Source: Catajapyx aquilonaris (Eukaryota). From it: DNA of 64,000 bases. Made by a program: the position numbers and the translations under genes. Positions 52,601 through 55,600 of the stretch are shown piece by piece (the stretch's first letter is position 1; every line of letters starts with the position of its first letter). The notes under the pieces were generated by a model. It ran no database searches. It saw only the letters and a program-made list of their open reading frames with translations, and was not told where the DNA came from. Location of the stretch: contig KZ538219.1 of assembly GCA_000934665.2 (NCBI GenBank), positions 1 to 64,000 of the forward strand, in the 5' to 3' direction.

Positions 52601-55600
52601 TACCGTGACGAGATTGCAAAATTTATGCACCAAGAAATGGGGACGGAAAAAGAAGGTTATGAAACCCCCGTGAGATGATAGTCAGCCTACATTCTTTTCC
52701 CTGACCCATGCACAAGGACTTTTTTTTATATACAAATACTGCCATGGCCAAATCCGTGCGATTTTATCCCATAAAGGACCACTGTCGTTGTAATCGCCTA
52801 CTGCACGTCCAACCAACACACTGGCACCACGTCATTTCAATTATTTCTAGGCACGTTGTCGTACTTGTCAGTCGTTCAGGCACACTTCACCACACATGAA
52901 TATATCCACCGCACAGGCCACTTAGGCAGCGAATTCCTCCACGTCCTCAGCAATGCACGAGCCACCAAATTTTTTTTTTTGCCGTCTCCCAGCCTCAGTT
53001 GCCGGTACGTGCGGAGGTCTGTCACGGTTTGTCACGCTCCAGAGACAAGACATCTCCATGAAGGCATAAAGCATTGCTATTAATAAACCCGGCGGTACTA
53101 ACCCGCGGCCAAGCTACGCTGACTCAGGAACGACCTGTGGACCGGGAAGTGCCCGTGCCTGGGGAAACCGGACCAGTGGTAAGCCGGATGAAATGGCCTG
53201 GAGGCTAGAGGCAGCTGTTGTCCAGCAGTGGAAGGCAGGCTGTCCAAGTAGTCCTGACTGTAGACGCTCTCCTCCCGCCGGTACACCACCTCGTACCTAT
53301 AGGTGGCCGGCGGGCTCAGCTGGGGACAGCAACAACAGCAGCAGCACAGGCGGCGCAGCATCCTGAACCGCCCATCTCCAGCACCCAGATCATAACCCCA
53401 CGTGTCCCATTCTGCTCCACAGAACGCCGCACTGTCCCACAACTAATCCTCACCCGACTGAAAGCCTCACACTACTATCCCAAGGCCTCCTGGACGAGTC
53501 CATTCTGTGGATGGAATGCGCCTGGCCTCGGGCAACACACCATCTTCCACTTGTTTTTTTTTCTTCTTCTTCTTCTTTCACCCTCCCTTGCCTTCCACCT
53601 CCCTATGTACTGCCGCTTCTTCGGCCCAACCAGGCTGAGAAACAAGTGTGGAATCCAACCACGGCTTCTGTTAAACTTGCCAGTGGGCGTTTCGAGAATT
53701 CGGTTCGTGATTCTCGAACTCAAGAATCCGCAGAAAAAAAAAAAGCCGGTTCACACGATCGTCGTTGTCTCTTGTCGTTCGGCTGGAATATAGGCGTGCC
53801 AACCGATCGGGCAATTTGCAGGACGGATGTGCTTGTGCACCCCCCTGTAAATGAACTCGCTTATCGTTGAATCTGGCAATGTTGTACCGTGGCACGCAGG
53901 TGGGCTACGTGCATGCGAGAATACGCTACCAAAGCGCTTTTGACGCTACGAAAACTGCTGGCATGTCCTATCAGACTGTTGCCTTGAACGTGCCATTTCC
54001 GGAATCGACAAATTAGCAGTTATTTACTGATATCGTGACAAGTGCTAGCGTCCCCAAAATGTTAACCCCGATCAGGCCTGGTGTAGACCATTAATCCTTC
54101 TCTTACGTCACATAACTGTCAGTCCCGTGCCAAAATGACGAGATGTTACAAGGTTCAATCAAGTGCTGACGAGGCTTGTACTGGCAGTTACGGTTTTTTT
54201 GCTGCCCGCATCTCTTTTTGGCGGAGTTTCCTATCCCGGAGGGTAAATTTTTTTTTTTACGGGCCTCTAGGGAAGATCCCTTTTTTATTTTTGGAAAACC
54301 CGTGTGCTCCACAAAAGTGTGGGCCTAGTTTTTGCCCCGATGATTCCAGGATCGGATAAGCATCGAGTCTACTTCCCTTTTAGCCATCCATCCGAAAAAG
54401 AAAACAGACACAAAAAAAATGTACCGGCGGTTTTTAAAAAAAAGCTGAAGACGCTTCCGTGTTTATCCTGGCTATTTTTGGCAGTTCGTACATGAATAAT
54501 CGTGATATGCTAATAGACGACACGCCCATCGAATCTGTAATTAATCATATTAACATGGAATAAACGCCCGTTTTATACACGGATTATTCTATGCCCTAGT
54601 TTCAGACCCGTACATTGGCACATTCCTCAGAACCCTGTGCCAGAAAGCCGAGGAGTAAATCATCGCAATTAATATTGCGCTCCCGGCCCTCATTATTATC
54701 ACTCCGCTTCATTAATATCCGACCCCCCCACCCCCCCCCTCGGAAAAGCATGGTGTTTGCACTCCCATACATTCACCTGCCAACGATCCAAATATCGCAA
54801 AATCCAAGTTGCTCGAGGCACATTTTGGCTGCCATATAATAAACAAGCGTCCCCGCATGTGTGGGATTGACCATGTGGAAATGAAATTTCGTGCCAGCTT
54901 CACTCTCCCAAACGTCGGGGAATCACGAAGCATTTCGCCGAGCATTCACCTTTTTGCATGCGACCAGTTTTATTTTACCTGCTACATACCCGGGAGAATA
55001 AAGCGTCGAAACCCAGGATGCGTAACCGGGTATTCAAAAAAAAAGAAAAAAAAAGAGAGCTGCCAGACCTGCAAAATAGGGCAGTTGGGTACATCCCCCG
55101 ACAACATCCAAGCTCGATGGGGAGGGTTTACCCATGCAAATCGCACCACCAACTTCTAAATAATGCTAAATTGGGGAAGGCTTACGGGTAGGGCGCAGAT
55201 TCTGTCGCCCTTGGCAACCAGGCGGAACAGCCGAAATTTCGCTTGGGTGTGGTCAAGACATTGCAGGTCAAGGTATCCATCTCACACTTACAAGAAATGA
55301 ATCTAATGCGATATTTGCATGTTTGAGTCTTCCGGGCAGCTGACCTTGCCTCCAGCCGGAAACAGCGGACACAAGAGGGTACTGGCCCTTGGACTGTGTG
55401 AGAATTTCGGGGGCCGGACCCGCTGACCTTGGCAATGAGTGAATTGGCCATGGGTAAATAGTACCGGAGTCAGGCTGTCACTTTTCCACCGATACGGATC
55501 AGAGGGGGTCGCCCTACGCATTACTGTGCGTCCATGCTGTCATATCAGCTCCCTAATAATTGACTGCATTTACACCGGAACCGGGCGTCAGTTTGTAACA

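Follow-up and report, generated by a model that had tools for sequence, protein, structure and literature searches.

The window analysed herein, 64,000 nucleotides of Catajapyx aquilonaris DNA (positions 1 to 64,000 of the forward strand of contig KZ538219.1, assembly GCA_000934665.2), carries on its minus strand a gene of the MAGI family, whose proteins organise cell junctions and synapses. In fact the architecture of this gene, namely PDZ0, a truncated GuK domain, two WW domains and PDZ1-5, fits the inverted domain order of MAGI, and along the minus strand the PDZ0 exon (63888 upward) is followed by an additional coding segment at 53361-53103, then by the first GuK exon at 51520-51287 and by the WW and PDZ exons to ~41156 (Table 1). 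The additional segment, which lies inside the long intron between the PDZ0 and GuK exons, is the subject of the present work: a first-pass annotation made from the sequence alone had proposed it as an alternative first exon giving MAGI an N-terminus rich in cysteine (Cys), possibly palmitoylated, in place of PDZ0. As judged from homology, the alternative first coding exon of MAGI at 53361-53103 is genuine and anciently conserved across arthropods, and we hold it very probable that the exon is also in use.

The identity of the host gene is supported by several comparisons. Pfam finds GuK, WW and PDZ domains on the window exons, with Guanylate_kin at an expectation value (E) of 4.7e-10 for 51287-51520, and by tblastn the GuK exon is 84.6% identical to Penaeus over 51518-51285. 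The gene is colinear with the MAGI genes of Penaeus, Hyalella and Daphnia from the GuK exon down to ~41156, the PDZ0 exon being matched only by Hyalella P0043, which is the sole PDZ0-bearing query of the four. For the PDZ0 exon itself, a Schistocerca protein (P0075) matches at 71% identity with E 2e-16, and the tblastn matches to PDZ0 span 63999-63856.

Table 1. Features of the alternative first exon and of the adjoining MAGI exons, in window coordinates
Feature	Position	Strand	Remarks
Alternative MAGI first exon, coding part	53103..53361	minus	ATG to last exon base; 86 codons + 1 base, phase 1
Cys codon run, candidate S-acylation site	53326..53346	minus	residues 6-12; seven consecutive Cys after MLRRL
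Conserved linear motif of the exon	53233..53307	minus	residues 19-43; holds the sole confidence peak of the predicted structure
PRHGH island	53149..53163	minus	residues 67-71; common to copepod versions; weak alone
Splice donor GTTAGT	53097..53102	minus	GT at 53102-53101; in-frame codons GGT TAG
First GuK exon, shared acceptor exon	51287..51520	minus	entered in phase 1; ends GVFE
Canonical PDZ0 exon, 3' part	63888..64000	minus	cut by window end; donor A|gtaagt, phase 1
PDZ0-GuK intron, contains the alternative exon	51521..63887	minus	12,367 nt

Frame and splice sites of the alternative exon

The frame begins at ATG 53361-53359 (minus strand), which is followed by CTG CGC CGC CTG, seven Cys codons and a Pro codon (CCC), so the peptide opens with MLRRL-C7-P within the 12,367-nt PDZ0-GuK intron, just as the first-pass annotation had read it. 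The Cys codons, TGC TGC TGC TGT TGT TGC TGT (53346-53326), are mixed and form no pure triplet repeat, again as annotated, and Tandem Repeats Finder at score 30 does not call them as a repeat. From stop to stop the open reading frame (ORF) occupies 53098-53442 and has 114 codons; between its upstream stop (53445-53443) and ATG 53361 there is no in-frame ATG, and an A stands at position -3 of the start codon.

At its 3' end the exon reads ...TTG GCC GCG G|GT TAG T with 53103 as the last base, in phase 1. The acceptor of the GuK exon, cttgttgcag|, is followed by AT ACA CTG ACG AAG from 51520 and requires one upstream base; the donor of the alternative exon is phase-compatible with it, and splicing from 53103 to 51520 would join G and AT into an Asp codon. 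The PDZ0 exon, which ends in ...CAA GGC A|gtaagt at 63888, is left in phase 1 as well, like the alternative exon. The open frame of 86 codons closing in a phase-1 donor G|GTTAGT that fits the GuK exon, as the earlier proposal had it, is thereby confirmed, and with it the whole of that description of the sequence.

Coding signal of the exon

The length of the frame is at the level of chance, six of the 14 minus-strand ATG-ORFs of at least 60 codons in the PDZ0-GuK intron reaching at least 87 codons. Composition is suggestive: in the frame of the exon, G+C at third codon positions (GC3) is 0.78, while the two alternative frames have 0.55 and 0.58, and the G+C content of the exon as a whole is 63% versus 46-47% in the flanks. 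A profile hidden Markov model was made from other species' N-terminal modules (36 distinct ones, the window sequence being left out) and run against all six-frame ORFs of at least 20 residues in the window. Among these 2164 ORFs the sole match is that at 53101-53442 on the minus strand (E 1.4e-12, score 45.1), the runner-up having E 2.1.

Similarly, when 75 foreign MAGI N-termini were compared by tblastn with the PDZ0-GuK region, 28 queries matched PDZ0 and six the alternative exon, and the intron gave one further weak site at 57258-57211 (E 0.005). With the Penaeus query P0047 the exon is covered over 53301-53176 at E 1e-5. It is therefore by homology (the profile, tblastn and the exon end described below), not by length, that the exon is told from a chance ORF. 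As for other coding or structural content, Pfam gives on the exon only LINC-PINT at 22.7 bits, below the cut-off of 27 bits and taken as noise, the three plus-strand ORFs over the exon match no Pfam family, and Rfam has no match within 51000-64000.

Homologous modules in other arthropods

A HMMER search with the 86-residue peptide against 1.84 billion representatives gave four matches, three of which start with a Cys cluster followed by the conserved motif. A word-indexed search with the single peptide gave 56 candidates, none at E<=0.01, and a search of the ESM Atlas gave no usable match. The profile built from the HMMER matches (A1) then found 38 proteins at E<=1 among 7268 candidates, of which seven are 1639-1946 residues long and contain the GuK, WW and PDZ domains of Pfam. 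The full-length carriers, identified by their own name or that of their cluster, comprise Hyalella azteca XP_047740389, Penaeus XP_047471948 and XP_047471945, XP_066948325, Daphnia XP_057379722 and D. sinensis KAI9558159; divergent versions of the module occur in Trinity transcripts of Calanus glacialis, in Lepeophtheirus (XP_040580191) and in the scorpion Centruroides (XP_067134043 and XP_023222035), while models consisting of the exon only occur in Trinorchestia, Portunus, Penaeus japonicus and Meganyctiphanes. For the copepods, BLASTP with Calanus P0199 aligns window residues 9-71 with its residues 14-82 at 31% identity (E 1.4e-5), the alignment ending in PRHGH, and this island is matched at five of five positions in Lepeophtheirus P0153.

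In all homologues the module is the start of the protein, and in the MAGI proteins and transcripts it continues directly with the GuK exon, no PDZ0 intervening. For example, the joint reads ...SPLHQLAAG|SLTRDLRQYL in Penaeus P0067 and P0069, ...SSGPAG|SVTRDL in Hyalella, ...PLYQNFGG|GLTKDL in Daphnia, ...SRQRRG|SITSDL in Calanus and ...LTTDGC|LTKDL in Centruroides. Moreover, in Hyalella a single gene yields sibling isoforms in which PDZ0 (...VIRTVPAG|SVTRDL) or another N-terminus precedes the identical joint, and Penaeus isoforms likewise have PDZ0, another N-terminus or the Cys module at one joint; from these alignments the N-terminal variants of Hyalella are a set of mutually exclusive first exons. 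The Hyalella and Penaeus siblings point, by homology, to the same exclusion between the Cys module and a domain-bearing N-terminus in the window, which has both exons in the same phase.

The exon boundary itself can be compared with Penaeus, where ORFs on genomic-like contigs diverge right after LAAG and continue with GKAQ, letters which agree with G|GTAAG and thus with phase 1. The window exon ends in ...SQRSLAA(G)| and that of Penaeus in ...HQLAAG|, and by this comparison the exon end and the splice phase are homologous. The homologue rows from RefSeq are computer models; the joint is also seen in assembled RNA of copepods, namely in Trinity ORFs of Calanus glacialis and in P0148 from a metatranscriptome set. 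The proposal of an alternative first exon for a PDZ0-less MAGI is thus upheld by homology to isoforms known as RefSeq models and assembled transcripts, with the same joint and the same phase.

Several stand-alone records contain the module outside a MAGI annotation: Portunus P0011 and P0073, including XP_045117658 named 'wetA-like' (247 residues), and P0012 of Penaeus japonicus, XP_042879656 named 'extensin-like' (318 residues). Such 'wetA-like', 'extensin-like' and 'hypothetical' records are probably the MAGI first exon with read-through, i.e. mis-split gene models, and as a consequence for annotation the Portunus and Penaeus japonicus records look like orphaned copies of the first exon. A further HMMER match (P0001, E 1.8e-11 over 11 stretches) was excluded from the alignments, being made of tandem repeats that resemble only residues 28-66. 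It has 655 residues with 11 tandem repeats of ~56 residues (…HREDWYWSQDILDR…), each 41% identical to residues 28-66, and the repeats have neither the Cys cluster nor YRYEVVY.

Anatomy of the module

In an alignment of 26 rows with the window as the first row (A4), the positions M1, C7, Y21, Y23, V25, V26, Y27, R28, D37, Y38 and L39 are invariant, and the window keeps all 11 of them; R22, E24, R29, P56 and S64 are nearly invariant. The module may accordingly be described as a Met, a Cys cluster and then YRYEVVYRR[ED][ED]..DYL. The Tyr-rich motif, which the first-pass annotation passed over, is the best-conserved part of the exon and stands far above the Cys residues in this respect.

The Cys cluster takes various forms, such as CGWC in decapods, CACC in amphipods, CCVCQC in Daphnia and C7 in the window, the last being the longest Cys run among the arthropod modules. 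The count of Cys within 10 residues is 2-6 in 35 of the 36 foreign modules, and there the first Cys follows a Met by 2-7 residues, the exception being an N-terminally cut ORF; in the window the first Cys comes 5 residues after the initiator Met. Of the distinct N-termini that contain the module, 32 out of 37 have at least two Cys in residues 2-16, as against 8 out of 131 of those that do not, counts which are descriptive and give no probability since the rows are related. There is also a resemblance to GAP-43, whose N-terminal acylation motif is MLCCMRR...: both have Met-Leu, adjacent Cys and Arg, but in the window the order is reversed with the basic residues before the Cys, there are seven Cys, and the protein is unrelated, so that it is a resemblance only.

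Five of the eight module-less N-termini with Cys belong to a second family, MSVSCCLQ (P0108, P0109, P0124, P0129 and P0206). This sequence heads short MAGI forms which start just before the WW domains and have no GuK, and P0206 clusters with Calanus MAGI; MSVSCCLQ… may be another alternative start of the acylation type in copepod-like organisms.

The window version otherwise agrees with the arthropod Cys-rich MAGI isoforms in having the Met, the Cys cluster, the Tyr-rich motif and the direct GuK joint without PDZ0, and differs from them in size and in accessory stretches. Its exon encodes 86 residues as against ~165 in Daphnia and 240-335 in malacostracans, and it has no basic KRRQR run of the Daphnia type. 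In the malacostracan modules (P0003-P0014 and P0047) a stretch …SP(H/R)TPLSPGPP(A/G)Y… near the exon end is conserved in amphipods, decapods and krill. Its SPGPP[AG]Y part is PPxY-like and a possible ligand of WW domains; neither the window exon nor the Daphnia and copepod versions contain the stretch.

The structure predicted by AlphaFold2 for the exon with the 26-row alignment has a mean predicted local distance difference test score (pLDDT) of 59.4, a predicted template modelling score of 0.18 and no secondary structure, and the sole confident stretch is residues 21-30 with a mean pLDDT of 83. On this model the module looks like a disordered tail with a short linear motif. The Tyr-rich acidic motif, invariant as it is, most likely serves to dock a partner. 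A complex prediction, made for the idea that the module takes the place of PDZ0 in packing on the GuK (GK) domain and using residues 60-165 versus 166-258 of Daphnia sinensis P0072, scored 0.00 twice; as it was made with the alignments unused and with no controls, it is evidence neither way. The possibility that RRATYRYEV mimics the GK ligand R-Phi-x-pS-Y-X-X-A-Psi (PMC10171801, in excerpt) was rejected on reading the sequences: the window has Pro at -2/-3, malacostracans have Gln for Ser/Thr, and position +4 is Glu and not Ala.

Comparison with known MAGUK and MAGI N-termini

As described in excerpts of PMC6365469, PSD-95, SAP97 and PSD-93 have alpha forms palmitoylated within the first 10 residues, which alternate with beta forms bearing L27. 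In these DLG alpha forms, as in the window, a short Cys-bearing N-terminus from an alternative exon stands in place of a folded MAGUK domain. The two differ in that DLG is another MAGUK subfamily, that L27 is replaced there and PDZ0 here, and that acylation of the window N-terminus is putative; unlike the DLG alpha forms, moreover, the window has an extra invariant motif after the Cys residues. No relatedness in sequence to the DLG alpha N-termini was detected, as neither the four HMMER matches, read as sequences, nor the 38 profile matches, judged by their names and Pfam domains, include a DLG protein. The relation to the palmitoylated DLG alpha N-termini is an analogy and not membership.

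Within the MAGI family, three PDZ0-less forms can be compared. Alternative initiation gives rise to rat MAGI2/S-SCAM beta and gamma, from which PDZ0 and part of GuK are missing (PMC8428372, in excerpt), and C. elegans MAGI-1S is transcribed independently from exon 7 without PDZ0 and GuK (PMC2645691, in excerpt). They share the lack of PDZ0 with the isoform proposed here, but are simple truncations losing part or all of GuK, whereas the window isoform would keep the entire GuK and gain a new conserved peptide. What the loss of PDZ0 could mean for the GK domain is indicated by mammalian MAGI2, for which excerpts of PMC10171801 describe PDZ0 and the truncated GK as one supramodule with PDZ0 packed on GK; there GK alone binds phospho-SAPAP ~50-fold more weakly, and mutations decoupling PDZ0 from GK impair binding.

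The first-pass annotation had also supposed that such an isoform was not described for MAGI. This stands for the literature searched: in our search, which lay outside subscription journals and supplements, no paper turned up that deals with a Cys-rich or palmitoylated N-terminus of MAGI, nor one with a Cys-rich N-terminus replacing PDZ0 while GuK is kept, 'palmitoyl' has 0 occurrences in the available text of the MAGI review PMC8428372, and neither 'MAGI' nor 'S-SCAM' occurs in that of the postsynaptic palmitoylation review PMC6365469. It does not stand for the databases, where orthologous isoforms are already in RefSeq and transcriptome sets. The window exon is, in short, a new member of an exon family which is present in databases and undescribed in the literature searched.

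The proposed isoform and its alternatives

Taking the orthologues as a guide, transcription would start upstream of the exon within the PDZ0-GuK intron, and splicing from 53103 to 51520 would yield a MAGI without PDZ0 that begins with MLRRL-C7. The order in this isoform would be MLRRL-C7, a short disordered linker, the Tyr-rich motif and GuK-WW-WW-PDZ1-5. From what is generally known of S-acylation and from the DLG precedent, DHHC enzymes would S-acylate the Cys cluster flanked by Leu and Arg, and the N-terminus would be held at the membrane; by analogy we lean towards such acylation of the cluster. The GK domain, in turn, would be expected to be weakened or differently regulated without PDZ0, because PDZ0 packs on and supports GK in mammalian MAGI2. 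As a whole, this explanation, with an alternative exon, a PDZ0-less isoform, a lipid anchor, an altered GK and a docking motif, seems to us a likely one. An isoform without PDZ0 and with GK, a probable lipid anchor and the motif should differ in its location and in its GK ligands.

A number of observations weigh on the other side. The donor GTTAGT has T at +3 and is off consensus, and the in-frame TAG directly past it means that unspliced RNA would encode an 87-residue peptide. The start is preceded, at a distance of 14-49 nt, by out-of-frame ATGs at 53375, 53393 and 53410 (minus strand), and such upstream ORFs may damp translation. Within ~490 nt upstream there is a single initiator (Inr)-like word, TCAGTC at 53461, and it lacks a match to the downstream promoter element (DPE). 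The full-length homologues are all computer models or assembled transcripts and none is a characterised protein, and the module is absent from the MAGI representatives of pterygote insects, surveyed at one isoform per 90% cluster. In scorpion and Lepeophtheirus the Cys residues sit 20-30 residues in. Conservation in relatives, which the first-pass annotation had named as a check, is likewise divided: the frame and module are conserved, as the profile match shows, and so is the position of the Cys cluster, but the number of Cys ranges from 2 to 7 across modules.

The region upstream was also read for its signals in general. Three Inr-like words are present, none with DPE, there is no strict TATA, and a loose TATAAA lies ~1.2 kb upstream, all of which is at chance level; within 400 nt upstream of the exon there is no polypyrimidine-AG acceptor. 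ATG 53393 opens a 25-codon frame which overlaps the start codon; the three upstream ATGs would form upstream ORFs in the message if the transcript begins beyond them.

Among the alternative explanations, one accepts that the exon is used and assigns the Cys cluster to metal binding, redox or disulphide and oligomer contacts, membrane targeting then coming from elsewhere. The decapods, with only C-G-W-C in a CxxC-like spacing, speak for it, as does the much better conservation of the Tyr-rich motif than of the Cys residues. A fixed metal site, however, is expected to retain its Cys spacing, while in these modules both number and spacing vary and what is kept is the place after the Met beside Leu/Val/Trp and Arg/Lys, as in S-acylation sites; the peptide is, moreover, predicted to be disordered. 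We consider this explanation unlikely. Quite improbable is the view that the exon is in this lineage a conserved relic, intact but with its transcription, or its splicing into MAGI mRNA, lost. It would agree with the off-consensus donor, the upstream ATGs and the absence of the module from pterygote representatives, beside which the window MAGI branches; but an unused exon would be expected to decay, and here the exon has retained its open frame, its ATG, the Cys cluster, the 11 invariant residues and, at the exon end homologous to that of other species, a GT in the right phase, together with the frame-specific GC3.

The remaining two explanations take the frame out of MAGI altogether. One assumes a small independent gene inside the MAGI intron, or an unspliced transcript, with a product of ~87 residues that is not a MAGI isoform. 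It could draw on the TAG past the donor and on the stand-alone models of Portunus and Penaeus japonicus; yet the Penaeus and Portunus rows and the Daphnia-type ORFs diverge just past the exon end (LAAG; YQNFGG) in a manner that looks like intron read-through, Calanus transcripts and many RefSeq isoforms link the module to GuK-WW-PDZ, and the phase fits the shared acceptor, making this explanation highly improbable. As to the view that the ORF is fortuitous and merely lies within a GC-rich intron patch, for which the unremarkable length could be quoted, the unique profile match, the six foreign N-termini that match exactly here and the homologous exon end leave it a practically negligible probability. 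The alternative first exon of MAGI is the explanation we retain.

A bolder version of the lipid-anchored isoform can be formulated, although we hold it to be doubtful: arthropod MAGI would have possessed a lipid-anchored 'alpha-like' second N-terminus since before the chelicerate-mandibulate split, in which the 20-residue Tyr-rich acidic motif is a new short linear motif that replaces the support or gating of GK by PDZ0 or recruits a membrane partner. If so, MAGI would switch between lipid-anchored and domain-anchored modes with different ligand affinities, like PSD-95 and SAP97. Scorpions, crustaceans and a lineage on the hexapod side have all preserved the module, which argues for a functional N-terminal switch.

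The host gene and other features of the window

The phylogenetic position of the host gene was examined with FastTree, a fast method applied here to a single gene, on the concatenated exon translations of the window and 35 MAGI proteins hand-picked from 225 for taxon spread, 1120 of 3921 alignment columns being retained. In this tree the 15 pterygote insects form a clade of their own (support 100) whose sister is the window MAGI (support 98 for the two together), and the next branches are branchiopods with copepods, then malacostracans with barnacles. The exon at 43488-44615 alone has 471 matches of MAGI type at E<=1e-20; the best full-length ones, at 44-49% identity, come from polyneopteran insects, mayflies and decapods, and odonates are 60-65% identical over about half of it. 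The tree suggests for the window a hexapod-side lineage of Pancrustacea to which no annotated relative stands close.

Two further open frames on the minus strand lie within the gene. That at 46018-46611, of 198 residues, is situated between the WW and PDZ1 exons, and residues 829-914 of Penaeus P0060, which belong to an optional exon of some MAGI isoforms of that genus, match 46593-46291 at 36% identity (E 1.9e-8), so the frame is probably a conserved cassette exon. The other, at 49403-50095, encodes 231 residues rich in Ser and Arg, matches no Pfam family and lies in the intron between two GuK exons; Hyalella isoforms have an optional insert at the joint matching this intron (…GVFQG-SLYGTPLTT…-NHYGTPKPP), the likeness shown being one of position.

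Across 43000-62000 the ratio of observed to expected CpG stays at 0.28-0.45 through most of the MAGI segment dense in exons at 43-51 kb (0.68 in the bin at 47-48 kb), 0.8-1.0 over most of the long first intron at 52-60 kb, including the alternative exon, and 0.63-0.97 beyond. The contrast could stem from gene-body methylation confined to the 3' part of MAGI, and by itself is no evidence for a promoter.

Elsewhere in the window, the ORF list shows exons like those of cyclin-dependent kinases at ~3240-6350, downstream of MAGI on the same strand, putatively of the PFTAIRE/PCTAIRE type. A stretch with 30% G+C at 9000-10000 contains a tandemly repeated frame (…IITNYYYIK…, 9489-9800), and an assembly gap of 334 N occupies 15635-15968.

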